Source: Candidatus Heimdallarchaeota archaeon
GTDB lineage: Archaea > Asgardarchaeota > Heimdallarchaeia > Heimdallarchaeales > Heimdallarchaeaceae
Assembly: GCA_018238545.1 (NCBI GenBank)
Contig: JABCTC010000030.1
Coordinates: forward strand, 1-41,293
Direction: 5' to 3'
Length of the DNA: 41,293 bases
Every line of letters begins with the position of its first letter. Positions within the stretch are counted from its first letter, which is position 1. Below are positions 1,358 through 8,210 of the stretch, piece by piece. The position numbers and the translations under genes were made by a program. The notes under the pieces were generated by a model. The model made no database searches, was not told the DNA's origin, and worked only from the letters and a program-made list of their open reading frames with translations.

Positions 1358-2104
1358 TCAAACATTAAACCATATATCTTCTGAGATACAGACAATTCCT
1401 GATTGCTTGATTAGTTTAGTTTCAGGATCTACAACAGACTTGGGTATCCATATAGGTTTGTCAGTAAATTCTTCAATGAGTGCTTGAAAAGCTTTCTCTG
1501 TTTTAATATCTGTCTTACCCTCTTGATAAACATAAAACTGTTGCCGTTTTATCATTAATGCTACCATGTGTTGGAAAATTTCTTTTATATTTTCTCCAGT
1601 TTTTGCAGATACCTCATAATAGGGCATTTGCTTCCCTAATTTATTATATACTGCATTCAGATATTTTGATATCTCTTCGGATGATACTACTTTTTCTTCT
1701 TTGAGGTCATTTTTATTTCCTATTAGTATCATTGAAATTTGTTGGTCATCCAATGCATTCCTAACCTCTTCCGCCCACTTTGGAAGTGCAAGAAAAGAAG
1801 CTTTATTTGATAAATCGAATATTAAAAATACTCCATATGAACCACCATAGAATATTGGTCTTTCATCTGAGAATCTATCATGTGCTGAAGTCTCCATAAT
1901 CTGAATTCTTACTTTGTAATCTTCTATGCGTTCCCGCAGAATAGTTTGAATTGTTAAATCAGTTGCCCCAAATCCGACCCCAATAGTTTGCGAATATTTT
2001 ACGTTGAATTCAAAAATGCCTGGGAAATATCTTTGGATTATTGACGTTTTTCCAGTCTTTGAATTCCCTACTACAACCGTTTTAAATAAGAAATCAAATA
2101 GCAT
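1358..2104 (-). CDS. Rab-like small GTPase with divergent G3 box
   Basis: G1 GNSKTGKT, TIGVGF switch I, G3 ETSAH (canonical DTAGQ), G4 NKND, G5 SAK. Confidence 0.9.
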   Translation of the reverse strand: MLFDFLFKTVVVGNSKTGKTSIIQRYFPGIFEFNVKYSQTIGVGFGATDLTIQTILRERIEDYKVRIQIMETSAHDRFSDERPIFYGGSYGVFLIFDLSNKASFLALPKWAEEVRNALDDQQISMILIGNKNDLKEEKVVSSEEISKYLNAVYNKLGKQMPYYEVSAKTGENIKEIFQHMVALMIKRQQFYVYQEGKTDIKTEKAFQALIEEFTDKPIWIPKSVVDPETKLIKQSGIVCISEDIWFNV

Positions 2105-2813: not shown

Positions 2814-4250
2814 TTATTCTTCTTTTGTGTTCTTATATCTTCTAGCCATACCTGCTGCTGCACCCGTCATATCGTCACCAGGATCTTTAGGGAAAGGAGT
2901 GAGAGTTTTATCTGATGAGTGGAAACGACTTTTGATAGGAATAATTAATGTGCTGGGGGAATAGCGTTTAATGACTCTAAAAATTTCAGTTCTATTTTTT
3001 AGATGACGACACAAGTGAATGAAATCTGTGTGAAAAATTGAAAGATAAGAAAACCATTTTTTCTTCCAAAAAGACTTTTTTACCTTGTAAGTAATTATGA
3101 AAGGAATTTTGGTATAAAGCTTATAGGGCTCATGTTTAGAAATCAAAAAAAGTTGTACCATTTCAAGATTTTCAACGAATAATCCTGGTTGAATAATCCT
3201 TTCTTCAATTAATCTTGATTTAGTTCTAAAGAGTGTTCTAGCCGAAATATCATGTGTTTTTAATATATTATCAATACTAGGTTTCTTAAAATCCATTTCA
3301 CAGTTTCGTAAAAGATGAGTAACAGCTGATGAATCTTGATTAGGATAAGAAGTTTTCATGGATGAAATTAGTTGTCTATTTTTGGTGATTCTATACCTAA
3401 AGTTCTTTAAACTTTGAATTCCTTTTCCTATTCGTGAATAGGTTTTCCAGTTCAATACTCTTTGTGACTTAGGTGTATTATTCTCCCAATTTTCTATTGA
3501 TATTCCTTGAATCAATATTTCTGAATTAAAAATCAATCTCTTATCCTTTACATAATAATATTCTGAATCCTTTTCTTTTTCTTGTTTTATTCCATGGATA
3601 AATGTCGTTGTATCAATGAGTGATGATTTTTCAGGAAAAAGAAGGAAATAGTCAATTAGAACAGATTGATTATCTTTGTTTATTAATTTATTAATTGCAA
3701 AGAATTCGTGAAGATTTAAACGGGAATAATCTATGAAGCTTCCAAGATAAACTCTCTTCTTCTTTAGATTTTTGAGTAAAATACTAATTTCTTTTTCTGA
3801 AACTCCTAGTTTTTCTGCTAAATCTTTGAATAATGAGCTAGGATTATTACTGAGTTCTTTTATTATTTGCTTCTCTAAATCTGAGAAATGTAGACCTAAC
3901 ATTTTCGTAAAATAATCAAGAACATCTTCCAAAATCATCTCTCTTGCATAAATTAGATCATGAAATGCTTTTAATTCACTCCAAAAATTGTCAATCTCAG
4001 AAAATTCCCAGAATTCATTTCTGTCTAATTCGGAGTCATTGAAGAAGTATTTGACGAAGAAATCAGTAATATCTATTTTTAGATTTGAAGTGAACTTTGG
4101 GAAAAAATCACGAAAAATATTAGTAGTTCTAGCTTTCGAATATTGTTGTATGTTTAAAGAAAACTCATCTGGTGAAATCCTTCCTTCTAATAGGTCACTA
4201 ACTGGGGCAGGTTTCGTAGATGTTGAACTATCAAAGTTACTATCGTTCAT
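2814..4250 (-). CDS. winged-HTH (Lrp/AsnC-like) regulator with two HTH motifs
   Basis: LEKQIIKELSNNPSSLFKDLAEKLGVSEKEI and KPSIDNILKTHDISARTLFRTKSRLIEERII. Confidence 0.7.
   Translation of the reverse strand: MNDSNFDSSTSTKPAPVSDLLEGRISPDEFSLNIQQYSKARTTNIFRDFFPKFTSNLKIDITDFFVKYFFNDSELDRNEFWEFSEIDNFWSELKAFHDLIYAREMILEDVLDYFTKMLGLHFSDLEKQIIKELSNNPSSLFKDLAEKLGVSEKEISILLKNLKKKRVYLGSFIDYSRLNLHEFFAINKLINKDNQSVLIDYFLLFPEKSSLIDTTTFIHGIKQEKEKDSEYYYVKDKRLIFNSEILIQGISIENWENNTPKSQRVLNWKTYSRIGKGIQSLKNFRYRITKNRQLISSMKTSYPNQDSSAVTHLLRNCEMDFKKPSIDNILKTHDISARTLFRTKSRLIEERIIQPGLFVENLEMVQLFLISKHEPYKLYTKIPFIITYKVKKSFWKKKWFSYLSIFHTDFIHLCRHLKNRTEIFRVIKRYSPSTLIIPIKSRFHSSDKTLTPFPKDPGDDMTGAAAGMARRYKNTKEE
2838..2903 (-). 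repeat. shared C-terminal tag, copy 2 (LTPFPKDPGDDMTGAAAGMARR)
   Basis: 18 of 22 aa identical to copy 1. Confidence 0.9.
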
Positions 4251-4305
4251 TGACTATCCTACATTTATTAGAGAGTATGATATATAATGGTTCTTGTGAA
4301 CATAG

Positions 4306-4337
4306 TAACCATAGGTGTATAAACTAACCATAAGTGT
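4306..4337. promoter_or_regulatory. direct repeat TAACCATA(G/A)GTGT x2, candidate operator upstream of 2814..4250
   Basis: 4306-4318 and 4325-4337, 12 of 13 bases identical. Confidence 0.4.
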
Positions 4338-4343
4338 GGTGAT

Positions 4344-4481
4344 CTGCTTGAACTGTTTTTTTTCCTACAGGGAGCAAATTTGGGATCTTGCTCTGCCTGT
4401 TATTTAGCTGGTGGAGCTGGTGGATAAAGCTAAACAGCTAAGCAGTTTTTCCGACAAAGTGTAAATTTGGGGAATTACACT
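4344..4481 (-). ncRNA. candidate structured intergenic RNA element
   Basis: nested inverted repeats ctgctt/aagcag, acagg-gagcaa/ttgctc-cctgt, tttagct/agctaaa and agtgtaa/ttacact. Confidence 0.35.
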
Positions 4482-4490
4482 AATCCCATC

Positions 4491-5864
4491 TTATGGTGTG
4501 GTTGCAGTTGTGTTTCCATTTGATACGTGTTTGTATAGATATGATCCATTAGTGCCGTTACCGTTACCATTGGTTCCATATTCAGGAGCAACACCATTGG
4601 CCATTTTGACATCTCCGAATTTGTTATTCTTGAGTTTTTCATCAATACTTTCTAGTGTTTTATTAAGGATGAAATCTTCGTCAACTTTCCAGTATTTTGT
4701 AGCCATATTCATATTATCAAGCTGGAATGGATAATACATACCATGTTTTCCAAAGAAGTCTAATGAACAAATTTGATAATCTTTGAAAGTGTGCCAAATA
4801 ATATAATTTAGTTTGGTGTCTAAATAGGGAGGAATGGTGAATCTAAGGAATATGCCGTTATTTAAGAGCTCAAAGCCTGTTTGAAATGGTGGAGTTTCTT
4901 CATGTAGAAGTCTAAATAACTGAGCTTTATCCTTGTTTGGTACGTTCTTGATGATATATGCTCTAGAGACATGTTGTTCAAACAATTTTCTACTGAAATT
5001 CCATCTGGGGTTAGTGATAAGATGGTGTCTAACAACATTATAGTATTTACGACCAAAGTCTACTTTGATATGATGTTCATTACGTGTATCAAAGAACTCT
5101 CGTAGGTTTTCAAAGATGAGAGACTCTTTTTCAGTAAGGCTAATCTTCTTTCCTAGATGCATGTAGTGCTTTCTGTAGTGGTTGATCAAAGTGGTTTGTT
5201 TGGTTCTAATTCCTATGTCATCACCGTTCTTAAAGTGAGTTGTAAGATCCTGTAACAATAGATAATGTAGTGGCTCAAGGCTGTCAAGATTTACAGCTGA
5301 TGGAAGTCTAGGTAAATCTTCTGCCTTCTGCTTTCTACTTTCCCAGAAACCTACAATATCGTATATTTCAGGTTCTTTAGTGTATCTGGGTAAAGGTTCA
5401 GGCTTTCTAACTCTGTATCCTGTAGCTTTGTCAACCTCATAGCTGTCGCAGTATTCTTGTTCAACCAAATGATCAAGAAACTTCAAGAGTAAAGGTTTAG
5501 TTTCTTCAGGCATGTCGAAATTCGCTACCATACCAAATTTTTCTCCATAGAATCGATTGTAGCTTCTTATGTAGTCAAAAGAAGAAAATGCCATCTGAAG
5601 GAGAGTGTATTGGTGTAGTGAAGAAATATCGAAAGTTACTAAGAAACGAGTGAGTTGTAGTCTTTCAGGAACAAAGGAAGCTAAAGGTACAGAGAGTATG
5701 TCTCGCTTTTTGAGAGAGTTAACCCTTCGAATCAATGTCTGTGTAGATGTTCCCAATTTCTCAGCCATAGTGGAATATGGCTCTAACGGATAGTTCTGCA
5801 AAACCAATAAGATTTTTCTATCTAGCGGGTTTAATTGATCTATTTTTATGTCTGTTTTTTCCAT
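4491..5864 (-). CDS. Lrp/AsnC-family winged-HTH regulator, extended/duplicated architecture
   Basis: N-terminal LNPLDRKILLVLQNYPLEPYSTMAEKLGTSTQTLIRRVNSL, a RAM-like segment, and a second degenerate LEPLHYLLLQDL unit. Confidence 0.8.
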   Translation of the reverse strand: MEKTDIKIDQLNPLDRKILLVLQNYPLEPYSTMAEKLGTSTQTLIRRVNSLKKRDILSVPLASFVPERLQLTRFLVTFDISSLHQYTLLQMAFSSFDYIRSYNRFYGEKFGMVANFDMPEETKPLLLKFLDHLVEQEYCDSYEVDKATGYRVRKPEPLPRYTKEPEIYDIVGFWESRKQKAEDLPRLPSAVNLDSLEPLHYLLLQDLTTHFKNGDDIGIRTKQTTLINHYRKHYMHLGKKISLTEKESLIFENLREFFDTRNEHHIKVDFGRKYYNVVRHHLITNPRWNFSRKLFEQHVSRAYIIKNVPNKDKAQLFRLLHEETPPFQTGFELLNNGIFLRFTIPPYLDTKLNYIIWHTFKDYQICSLDFFGKHGMYYPFQLDNMNMATKYWKVDEDFILNKTLESIDEKLKNNKFGDVKMANGVAPEYGTNGNGNGTNGSYLYKHVSNGNTTATTP

Positions 5865-5884
5865 TTTTTTTGTTCTCCATAATT

Positions 5885-6215
5885 TTTCAGCTGGTGGGAG
5901 CTTATTTGTGGAGTTGAAATGGAGGTGATTTCCAGTATAACTGGATAGAATAGAAATCTAACAGAGACAAATGCGAGAGACGACTTGTTGAGACCCTGAT
6001 TTGGCTCTGAATTAGACTTCTCTTCTAGACCTCTAAATTGTTTTTACGGATTGTTTAGATCCGCGGTTTGACCCCTTGTCAGTAAGTTCAATTTTGCTAG
6101 TGGTAGCCAGAATTCCTCATGAAAAACCTGTAAGGACCTATGACCTCTCTAAGGCCCGTGGTTTTCCTTTCTCGCCGAGAAATGAGGAAAGGGGGTGGGG
6201 TTTTTCTGGCGATCG
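5885..6215 (-). ncRNA. candidate structured leader or ncRNA between the peptide gene and the regulator
   Basis: GC-richer than flanks; stems gccagaa/ttctggc (6106/6204), ttcctcat/atgaggaa (6113/6182), aaaacc/ggtttt, tttctc/gagaaa, cggat/atccg, tccag/ctgga. Confidence 0.45.
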
Positions 6216-6237
6216 TGATAGTTTTTATTTAAATGGT

Positions 6238-6546
6238 TTAAGTGTATATGCCACCTATTGGTTCATCAGGAAATCCACCTGTTGGATCCTTAAATAAACC
6301 GCCAATTGGCTCGTCTGGAAATCCGCCTGTTGGATCCTCTTTAAACAAACCACCTATTGGTTCGTCTGGAAATCCGCCTGTTGGATCTTCTCGTAGATCA
6401 AAGGTGTAATCAGTGCAATGCACTCCCTTATGATCTGACATTTCTATTACTAATTTCCCGGTAGGTGCGTTTAGAGCGATTGAGCTCGCAACAACAGCTA
6501 CGAAACTTATTACAAAGATAACCCCAAATATTTTTTTCGCTTTCAT
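6238..6546 (-). CDS. secreted tandem-repeat peptide precursor
   Basis: Sec-type signal peptide (MKAKK + hydrophobic + ALNA), short pro-region, three (E)DPTGGFPDEPIGG cores with synonymous differences; GGTGG SD-like site upstream. Confidence 0.85.
   Translation of the reverse strand: MKAKKIFGVIFVISFVAVVASSIALNAPTGKLVIEMSDHKGVHCTDYTFDLREDPTGGFPDEPIGGLFKEDPTGGFPDEPIGGLFKDPTGGFPDEPIGGIYT
6241..6390 (-). repeat. three coding tandem repeats of about 48-51 bp
   Basis: EDPTGGFPDEPIGGLFK / EDPTGGFPDEPIGGLFK / DPTGGFPDEPIGGIYT. Confidence 0.95.
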
Positions 6547-6593
6547 TTTGCTTTTCCACCAGCTAAATTGAGCTTGTCTAACGATTTCCAGCG

Positions 6594-6625
6594 TACTATT
6601 TAAGATTTGTTACAATTTTCCATTT
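6594..6625 (-). promoter_or_regulatory. putative archaeal promoter of the peptide gene
   Basis: minus-strand CTTAAATA TATA-like box about 50 nt upstream of the ATG, with A-rich sequence upstream. Confidence 0.4.
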
Positions 6626-6679
6626 TCTAGCCTTTTTTGGAAAATAATCACAAACACATGCCTTACCAAAGGCTCAACT

Positions 6680-6712
6680 CTTTATGTATTCCTTTATGTA
6701 TGACTTTATGTC
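6680..6712. promoter_or_regulatory. CTTTATGT x3 at 12-bp period, candidate operator array
   Basis: copies start at 6680, 6692 and 6704. Confidence 0.45.
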
Positions 6713-6906
6713 GGAAAAACGTTTTACTTAGATAAACGCTTGAAATGTAAGGCAACATGTGTTGCGGTTTACATATTGTCAGAACTAAGAGCTATATGCT
6801 AGCAATATGTGGGTAATACTGCACACAGAAATAATGCCCCTCCAAAAATATTTATTATGATTTTTGTTTGAAAAAAAAGAAAAAGGTTTTGTAATTGAAG
6901 CTTATT

Positions 6907-7068
6907 TCATTTGAATTTAGCATGCTTTTTCTTAAATACAATTACTACTGTACTAATTCCTAAGGATAGAATTATTCCAACCATTGAGATAGATGTTGGT
7001 TTAATGTACCCCTATTCTGATGCTTTAATAATATAATCAGCTAGAAATTTACTATGTGGAAATTCACT
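6907..7068 (-). pseudogene. 3' remnant of a paralog of serine hydrolase 8484..9662
   Basis: translates SEFPHSKFLADYIIKASE*GYIKPTSISMVGIILSLGISTVVIVFKKK, versus NEFPFREIVADYIIKASEEGYIESIAITLGSVILSLGISTVVIVSKKK. Confidence 0.85.
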
Positions 7069-7166
7069 TTACTTGATCTTAAACTGTTTTTTCTTTGACA
7101 TATTAACTATTGTGATAATGCTAAATGGTAGAATTATTGAAATCAGATAAATTGGTTCATAGCCTT

Positions 7167-8210
7167 CTACAAATACAATTTATTTTTTGAAAGCTTAATC
7201 TGTATCAGAGAAACGATAACCCAAATTGGTACTAATACTAGAGGTACTAGATAAACTAAATTGTTTTTTATTTTGTAAATCACTATGGATATATTTTTTA
7301 TTTCAAACCAATATTCAGTTCCTGATGTTAAGATTAGTAAACTAATGCCATAAGGGAGTTCAACAGTTATCGTACCTCTAACATAAAACTTATCTGAAGC
7401 AGCATTCTGATATTCTAAATATATAATCTCAACAGAAGTATTGTACTCTGCTGCTATTATGAGATATGCTTTTTCACCTTGAAGAGGATGTACAGCGCCC
7501 TGAGGCTTTATTCGAATCGAACTACCACTTGCCAAAACAAAGGAGTTTTCATAAACCAATACATAGTTACTATCTTGTATAGCAAGAAATGTACTAAACA
7601 TTAACATTGACATGATAAATACTACTGAACCTAGCTCAATTACTTTCGATAATTTAAGTTTTGAGAAATACTTCTGACTTCTGATGATTTTTTTATTAGT
7701 ATGTTTACTCATGGGCATTCGATAGAATATGTATTTCTTAGTTTTCTTCTTTTCAAATATTGAAGCTAAAAACCCCAATCCCATAAACGCATCCGCTCTT
7801 CTTTTACTACCTTGTAGACTTCCAACTATTGCTACGTATATATATAGAAGACCAAATATAAGATACATAGGAGTCATTAAAAGATGATAAATCCAACCTG
7901 GCTTCCCTTCCATTCTTATTCGAAATTTGTCTTTAGGATTGTAAGAAATTGGTCTGAAATGACTGGATCCTTCTATTATTCTTGTTTCTTTAGGCTGCAA
8001 AACAATCTTAGGTGTTTCATCAAAAATGGCCGGTGTTTTTGAGGATTTCAAATCTACTATAATTTTTATTGTTTGAGGTTTTTTCTTCGGATTAAATAAT
8101 TCTATTTGGTATTCCGGATGATATTGTTCCTCCTCTACAATATCTTTATCCACTTGAAAATTTACTTCTACCCCGTAAAATCTGAAAGATTTCTTTATTT
8201 CATAATCCAT
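7167..8210 (-). CDS. hypothetical membrane protein
   Basis: 347-aa ORF with several hydrophobic segments and an AGGAG SD upstream. Confidence 0.7.
   Translation of the reverse strand: MDYEIKKSFRFYGVEVNFQVDKDIVEEEQYHPEYQIELFNPKKKPQTIKIIVDLKSSKTPAIFDETPKIVLQPKETRIIEGSSHFRPISYNPKDKFRIRMEGKPGWIYHLLMTPMYLIFGLLYIYVAIVGSLQGSKRRADAFMGLGFLASIFEKKKTKKYIFYRMPMSKHTNKKIIRSQKYFSKLKLSKVIELGSVVFIMSMLMFSTFLAIQDSNYVLVYENSFVLASGSSIRIKPQGAVHPLQGEKAYLIIAAEYNTSVEIIYLEYQNAASDKFYVRGTITVELPYGISLLILTSGTEYWFEIKNISIVIYKIKNNLVYLVPLVLVPIWVIVSLIQIKLSKNKLYL

Follow-up and report, generated by a model that had tools for sequence, protein, structure and literature searches.

The sequence analysed here is a 41,293-nt stretch of a Candidatus Heimdallarchaeota archaeon genome (GenBank assembly GCA_018238545.1, contig JABCTC010000030.1, positions 1 to 41,293; hereafter the window, from the genome labelled G000 below), in which a C-rich element behind a regulator gene is complementary to the ribosome-binding site (RBS) of a small peptide gene. 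The genes of this locus are all encoded on the minus strand, in the order peptide gene (6238-6546, ATG at 6546), reg1 (4491-5864), the gene of a 478-amino-acid HTH_24 protein (2814-4250) and the genes of two Ras-family GTPases. The peptide, proposed as the regulated target, has 102 amino acids, with a signal-like N-terminus followed by three hydrophilic repeats of ~17 amino acids rich in Pro, Gly and Asp. Orthologs of 75 and 103 amino acids were found, whose repeat units vary between species (those of genome G001 differ); a Pfam search of the peptide returned no family, and a protein-atlas look-up gave no usable lead. The product of reg1 is a 457-amino-acid regulator with an N-terminal AsnC/HTH_24 winged helix; among the 23 other genus genomes, at least 16 encode an ortholog with 55-91% identity to it, and the rest show weak matches. 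The element behind reg1 is called type A below, and a free-standing element located outside the window, which carries the same central word, is called type B.

The initial annotation had reported a 14-nt perfect complement, and both reading of the sequence and a repeat finder confirmed that ATTTAGCTGGTGGA (4402-4415, plus strand) is the 100% reverse complement of positions 6555-6568. The two copies that it had listed as partial, at 4415-4423 and 5889-5897, are exact copies of the 9-mer AGCTGGTGG. Four exact copies of this 9-mer are present in the window, all inside 4406-6564 (2.2 kb), compared with 0.14 expected by shuffling, and none of 100 shuffles gave four; the 14-mer, allowing up to two mismatches, had three matches in the window compared with 0.27 expected. 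A chance origin of the match is ruled out by these shuffles and by the conservation described below. At the level of the whole assembly (3.6 Mb, 34% G+C), the 9-mer was found 40 times and its reversed control 5 times. The 36 copies beyond the locus were judged by eye to lie in an open reading frame (ORF)-like context, as Ala-Gly-Gly codons, and the 9-mer is therefore not common as a non-coding word; on this by-eye assessment, the possibility of a word common genome-wide was rejected.

On the minus strand, the target site AUUUAGCUGGUGGA (6555-6568) contains a GGUGG Shine-Dalgarno (SD) sequence and ends 8 nt before the AUG, so that the match does cover the SD of the peptide gene, as had been proposed. 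The 3' end of the 16S rRNA of the same genome (GGAUCACCUCCU) forms five pairs with GGUGG when the two are aligned by hand, and GGUGG is therefore a usable 5-bp SD. A separate feature of the 16S rRNA gene of G000 (contig C86, L052 ~1525-1560, minus strand) is an insertion of ~30 nt, able to form a hairpin, just before the GGATCACCTCCT 3' end. Conservation in orthologous loci, named in the initial annotation as a test of its proposal, was found: AGCTGGTGGA is invariant, 5-9 nt before the ATG, in 11 orthologous loci (alignment A6 and pattern search), namely those where the gene upstream of reg1 is assembled, although the regulator proteins of the same loci are 55-91% identical. All 11 loci keep a TATA box (TTTAAATA-like), a short 5' untranslated region (UTR) and AGCTGGTGGA. 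The TATA box of the peptide gene in the window is CTTAAATA (6597-6604, minus strand), conserved in A6 as TTTAAATA, CTTAAATA or TTTATATA. From its position and the usual archaeal TATA-to-start distance, we infer a transcript start near 6575, which would place the 14-mer inside the 5'UTR. Close to this predicted 5' end lies a second putative pairing site, AAGCUC (6570-6575, minus strand), whose partner is GAGCUU of the type-B RNA. In addition, codons 6-9 of the peptide ORF contain AUUUGGGG (6522-6529, minus strand), which is complementary to the CCCCAAAU loops of the type-A hairpins and is retained as (A/C)TTGGGGT in 9 of the 11 peptide orthologs (A6). A second contact with these loops is possible but suggestive only, the 8-mer not being rare (3 in the window compared with 1.2 expected).

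The type-A element (4368-4481, minus strand, i.e. gene-sense) starts 10 nt after the reg1 stop codon. It is composed of a first hairpin with loop UUCCCCAAAU (4458-4481), a spacer, two tandem anti-SD words (UCCACCAGCUCCACCAGCUAAAU, 4402-4423), the last 14 nt of which form the perfect complement of the target site, and a second hairpin with loop GAUCCCAAAU (4368-4399), all on the minus strand. Alignment of the regions around the downstream copies showed type A to be common to four genomes (G000, G016, G021 and G002), in which C-rich hairpin loops flank two or three tandem CCACCAGCU words (three in G016, G021 and G002). Model R2, built from these four copies, found type A in the same four genomes only, and its two additional weak matches in the genus (E ~0.004) were not trusted. 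The description of the downstream copies as lying within a hairpin held in part: in the single-sequence fold the first CCACC is in a 9-nt loop, whereas the second is partly in a middle stem that one of the four genomes disrupts; the conserved parts are the two flanking hairpins. No conserved TATA box was present on either side of type A in the four-genome alignment. Because it has no promoter of its own and stands directly behind the reg1 stop codon, type A is probably made as the 3'UTR of the reg1 mRNA.

Known RNAs did not account for the element. Window positions 3800-7300 gave no match in Rfam 15 with E up to 1, and neither a tRNA nor a known RNA family was found as its identity. An occurrence of CCACCAGC just past reg1 in G005 was set aside as a coincidence, being inside a coding sequence (Ser-Pro-Pro-Ala). 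No conserved ORF was seen by eye on either strand of the elements, and the idea that the SD-like word of the opposite strand precedes a small ORF was rejected, because neither an ATG nor a reading frame is conserved there.

In nine other genus genomes no complementary element adjoins reg1, and the only one close to the locus is of type B, which is separated from reg1 by ~1.4 kb and by two oppositely oriented genes. This free-standing element has a length of ~125 nt; in G000 it lies at C73:3577-3704, in the spacer between two convergent (3'-3') genes, and in G021 both types are on one contig. Covariance model R1 detected 17 type-B copies, spread over 16 of the 24 genus genomes, and no copy in the 16 genomes searched from elsewhere in the order. 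Five more copies were found in metagenome contigs. A scan of the seed and first stem arm over 185,579 species matched only Heimdallarchaeota and uncultured-archaeon metagenome-assembled genomes (MAGs) of the genus, plus four bacterial sequences taken as chance. Rfam gave no match over the type-B loci, with one sub-threshold miRNA match elsewhere in the locus. Type A was not detected by R1, and the two types, which share the word CCACCAGC, are therefore at most putative homologs.

Type B has a conserved structure of three hairpins and an open linker, with compensatory changes. In alignment A5, 98% of the stem cells are paired, compared with 31-56% in controls with slid partners; both sides are altered in five pairs (21 cells), and none of 500 shuffles reaches the covariation score, with the caveat that A5 was fitted by the model itself. 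In G000-like copies, hairpin 2 is replaced wholesale. By contrast with these stems, the 15-nt linker CCACCAGCAGAGCTT shows no variation among the 17 copies, and these genomes contain no further occurrence of it. The predicted fold of the G000 copy leaves the linker unpaired, and its invariant open word, CCACCAGCAGAGCUU, provides an accessible and conserved candidate seed complementary to the SD region of the target. Hairpin 3 is preceded, at a distance of 23-25 nt, by a TATA box (TTTAAATA or TTTTATAT) in 16 of 16 copies.

Two further observations concern the genomic setting of type B. The order of the type-B gene and a gene for a 372-amino-acid membrane protein is swapped between G001-like (L017 1458-2756) and G000/G021-like arrangements (L029 344-1628, L014 6349-7633); despite this, the two stay on the same strand and next to an Ldh_2-like gene. 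No Pfam family was found for the membrane protein, and a Roadblock-like domain in it was an unsupported guess. G011 carries two type-B copies of different subtypes (C36:167-303 and C147:3137-3260), which could reflect a duplication or a mixed bin.

As two HTH_24/AsnC-type proteins are encoded at the locus and copies of AGCTGGTGG are present in all three of its intergenic spacers, the word could instead act at the DNA level, as an operator for one of the two adjacent winged-helix regulators, an alternative that had also been proposed in the initial annotation; invariance of both RNA partners would be equally expected of a protein-binding word. Nevertheless, AGCTGGTGG lacks palindromic symmetry; its copy at the peptide gene follows the predicted transcript start and is spaced from the ATG as an SD would be, whereas Lrp/AsnC-type operators are inverted repeats in the promoter or immediately upstream of it. 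In type B, the word stands between covarying hairpins behind a TATA box of its own, and the G000 copy of this element is located on a different contig. Beyond G016, the copy upstream of reg1 (the third CCACCAGCU copy, 5889-5897, minus strand, 25 nt upstream of the reg1 AUG) is not conserved: according to alignment A8 it is present in G000 and G016 only, degenerate in G021 and G002, and absent elsewhere. It is probably recent and of doubtful importance, and may represent a recent spread of the same word. A more typical operator lies directly upstream of the peptide TATA box, where a 17-nt inverted repeat (6606-6654, arms 6606-6622 and 6638-6654) is kept as GTTACnnTTTTCCA ... TGGAAAAnTGTAAC in most orthologs (A6; repeat finder pair I9). 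This repeat is likely the better operator candidate for the winged-helix regulators, and we consider an operator function of AGCTGGTGG unlikely.

The perfect inverted repeats bracketing 2.1 kb had also been proposed as recombination sites that invert the segment containing the peptide gene and the regulator. Orientation does not differ among the three loci (G000, G021 and G002) where the peptide gene is present together with type A, the same word occurs in an unlinked element, and 14 nt is short for such sites. Moreover, five proteins encoded around the locus were scanned (the peptide, the two HTH proteins, a GTPase and a 347-amino-acid protein without family), none of which has a recombinase family. 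With nothing but the bracketing repeats in its favour, inversion is extremely improbable.

The elements are read here on the CCACCAGC strand, an assignment in which we have good confidence and which is based on three arguments. First, TTGG(G/T)GTTT(A/T)(A/T)ATA is kept in 16 of 16 type-B copies whatever the neighbouring genes, and the TATA box is kept even in the convergent spacer of G000 and G021, where an mRNA promoter is not expected; conserved in such differing gene contexts, it points to the CCACCAGC strand. Second, the type-B stems contain 14 G-U cells on this strand compared with 4 A-C cells, most of which are model misalignments on inspection by hand. Since G-U cells become mismatches on the opposite strand, these cells, eight of them inside hairpin 1, support the same strand. 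Third, type A is directly behind a stop codon on the CCACCAGC strand.

Transcription from the opposite strand would yield RNAs with GCUGGUGG and GGGG loops, which could serve as SD mimics or decoys titrating a C-rich RNA, a protein or ribosomes. The hairpins form on both strands. On inspection by hand, eight copies would close the loop of hairpin 2 with a G-U pair on the other strand, where G-C and A-U variants also occur, and one internal stem pair of G002 fits that strand better. The G002 type-A hairpin also has a terminal G-U there. Set against these positions are the 14 stem cells that turn into A-C mismatches, the sole TATA box travelling with the element, which is on the other side, and the absence of a conserved TATA box for type A on the opposite strand. 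The fold of type A is also no better than shuffles there (z = -0.78, compared with -2.07 on the gene-sense strand). On balance, opposite-strand RNAs of this kind are improbable.

Predicted pairing with the peptide mRNA differs between the two types. Type A offers 14 perfectly complementary nt, whereas type B, with the G000 mRNA, forms a first helix of 9 bp (UCCACCAGC with GCUGGUGGA) and, beyond a small internal loop, a second helix of 6 bp (GAGCUU with AAGCUC). In linked constructs, which are single-chain stand-ins for a bimolecular calculation, both type-B helices form with the hairpins of the small RNA (sRNA) intact (-42.1 kcal/mol, 30% of the ensemble, z = -6.75), and the type-A duplex forms as well (-46.9 kcal/mol, z = -5.3). 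The mRNA site of the second helix varies as [A/G]AG[C/U]U[C/U] among the orthologs (A6), and all variants would still pair through G-U wobbles. As evidence for pairing these variants carry modest weight, given the frequency of transitions and the self-complementarity of GAGCUC-type words. The compensatory changes that had been suggested as a check were present in the hairpins (5 pairs, 21 cells) but not between seed and target, both of which are invariant.

The stability of the linked type-A duplex also fits pairing strictly in cis, in which one transcript containing the peptide gene, the regulator gene and type A would fold back over 2.1 kb, its tail closing the peptide RBS. The three parts are on one strand, no obvious strong terminator follows the regulator gene, and their order is kept on one contig in three of the four type-A genomes, the peptide gene of G016 being on another contig. 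Co-transcription is made uncertain by a T5 run after a conserved structured block, ~110 nt past the peptide stop codon. In addition, the widespread type B has a putative promoter of its own and is unlinked or cut off by genes on the other strand, and cis folding therefore cannot be the general mechanism. As a sole explanation it is improbable, although a cis fold-back is possible in the four type-A genomes. The proposal that the SD complement silences the peptide through RNA pairing was accordingly retained in part: a conserved structured non-coding element, a second element that has a putative promoter of its own and carries the same word as its sole invariant open stretch, and the co-occurrence of element and target are in its favour, whereas pairing in cis over 2.1 kb is not required.

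Across the 24 genus genomes, type B and the peptide start motif were both present in 14 and both absent in 6, while the start motif occurred without type B in 2 (G004 and G022) and type B without the start motif in 2 (G010 and G017), the G017 contig being cut inside the peptide gene. As these are related, non-independent MAGs that are 72-92% complete, the co-occurrence is supportive and not a test. Four contigs (G016:C48, G011:C147, G012:C138 and G017:C274) start 458-509 nt upstream of reg1, within the peptide-gene repeats; the repeats therefore evidently break assemblies, which limits presence/absence counts.

The elements could also be leftovers, that is, inverted partial copies of the peptide 5' end that either have no purpose or serve a different one, such as RNA stability or action on another target; the complementarity would in that case be a trace of their history. 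Read on its opposite strand, type A resembles the peptide 5' end in order, with ATTTAGCTGGTGGA, an A-rich stretch and ATTTGGGG, and G004 and G022 retain the SD word without a detectable element. Such leftovers would hardly explain why a 15-nt word is identical in 17 copies amid compensatory stem substitutions, which indicates selection on the word, nor why type A amplifies precisely the anti-SD word in tandem, nor the co-occurrence with the peptide gene. This origin without a role on the peptide mRNA seems to us a poor bet.

From what is observed, namely the sequences and how well they are conserved, the covariation of the hairpins, the TATA box and the joint occurrence of element and target, the reading that we favour, with a rough probability of 0.55, is that the elements are RBS-masking small RNAs of a new family acting on the mRNA of the secreted repeat peptide. 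The two C-rich RNA elements would be the regulators and the peptide translation-initiation region their target, type B being produced from its own TATA promoter and type A as the 3'UTR of the regulator mRNA. In each element CCACCAGC would be held open between hairpins, and its pairing would cover the GGUGG SD, 5-9 nt ahead of the AUG, keeping the small ribosomal subunit off the mRNA and resulting in less peptide synthesis. More tentatively, and with less confidence than in masking itself, the two elements may constitute a lineage-specific two-part RNA brake on the secreted repeat peptide, composed of a free-standing sRNA and a 3'UTR-borne copy with amplified seeds on the regulator mRNA, both co-inherited with the target across the genus.

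Several points weigh against RBS masking. Transcription, strand, RNA ends, pairing in the cell and the repressive outcome are all steps that we infer, and the oligo-T run after hairpin 1 of type B is clear in some copies only. Seed and target being both invariant, the main helix offers no compensatory (covariation) test. The self-complementarity of GAGCUC-type words and the resemblance of the complement strand of the element to a copy of the peptide 5'UTR fit an inverted-duplication origin, and leave room for a DNA-level or historical reading. The hairpin-2 closing pair and the internal G002 stem pair described above fit the other strand better. The genomes behind the co-occurrence counts are related and incomplete, and G004 and G022 (88% and 81% complete) keep the SD word with neither type A nor type B found there.

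Archaeal precedents for the favoured mechanism exist: sRNA154 and sRNA41 of Methanosarcina mazei are intergenic sRNAs that mask ribosome-binding sites (PMC5867862). The RNAs predicted here resemble them as independently encoded, structured archaeal sRNAs in which an exposed anti-RBS sequence pairs with the RBS and represses initiation. They differ from them in having no sequence or Rfam relationship, in their host, a Heimdall-group Asgard archaeon, and in the location of the seed, which is in an open linker between hairpins and not in a loop. They also differ in that one specific neighbouring target is predicted, together with a 3'UTR-borne paralog with tandem seeds, and in being known from sequence alone.

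Among bacterial systems, tisB/istR-1 of Escherichia coli is a type I toxin-antitoxin pair with a nearby trans-encoded antitoxin RNA. As in that pair, a small RNA lies near a small-protein gene and has a short stretch complementary to its translation-initiation region, but the protein here has 75-103 amino acids, a signal-like N-terminus and hydrophilic repeats, and type B can be unlinked. Type I toxins are usually hydrophobic membrane peptides of less than 60 amino acids, to which the 102-amino-acid peptide with its hydrophilic repeats does not correspond. Antitoxin-like proximity is seen for type A, which is complementary and 2.1 kb away, whereas type B is unlinked in G000. The comparison with a type I antitoxin made in the initial annotation is therefore restricted to a resemblance of mechanism. 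The icaR mRNA of Staphylococcus aureus has a 3'UTR anti-SD element that closes the SD of the same mRNA. It shares with the proposed type A a C-rich anti-SD word in a 3'UTR; here, however, the complement fits the SD of the upstream peptide gene and not the regulator's own GGAG. Finally, RsaE/RoxS of Firmicutes are global regulators with generic CCCC seeds and C-rich loops, and the present elements likewise expose several C-rich motifs (CCCC loops and linker) towards G-rich SD regions. Their longest complementarity (14 nt, or 9+6 nt) is in contrast specific to one mRNA, and there is no homology.

Two other features of the locus were recorded. Between the stop codon of the peptide gene and the start of reg1 (5900-6230, minus strand), the spacer contains several blocks that are invariant in 11 genus genomes (ATCGCCAGAAA, CCCCACCCC..TTTCCTC, CAAGGGGTCAAACC and TTAGAGGTCTA), with hairpins between them and no Rfam match, and the spacer looks like a separate conserved RNA or leader. 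In addition, the GTPase encoded at 2111-2773 and the 478-amino-acid HTH protein have an identical C-terminal tail, PKDPGDDMTGAAA.

Asgard archaea are the closest prokaryotic relatives of eukaryotes, and literature searches returned no report of any regulatory small RNA in this group whose target is defined. If the two-part brake is real, the elements and the peptide mRNA would form the first defined sRNA-target pair in Asgard archaea, and transcription of the regulator would be coupled to translation of the peptide. The locus offers a concrete candidate for such a pair, in which both seed and target site are defined and natural variation supplies one, two or three seed copies, free-standing or 3'UTR-borne. 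The proposed target, a secreted repeat peptide that evolves fast and may be a signalling precursor, is encoded next to winged-helix regulators and Ras-like GTPases, and the RNA layer may belong to a peptide-based signalling or surface system. Even without a confirmed function, the elements represent an uncatalogued structured RNA family with a narrow distribution.

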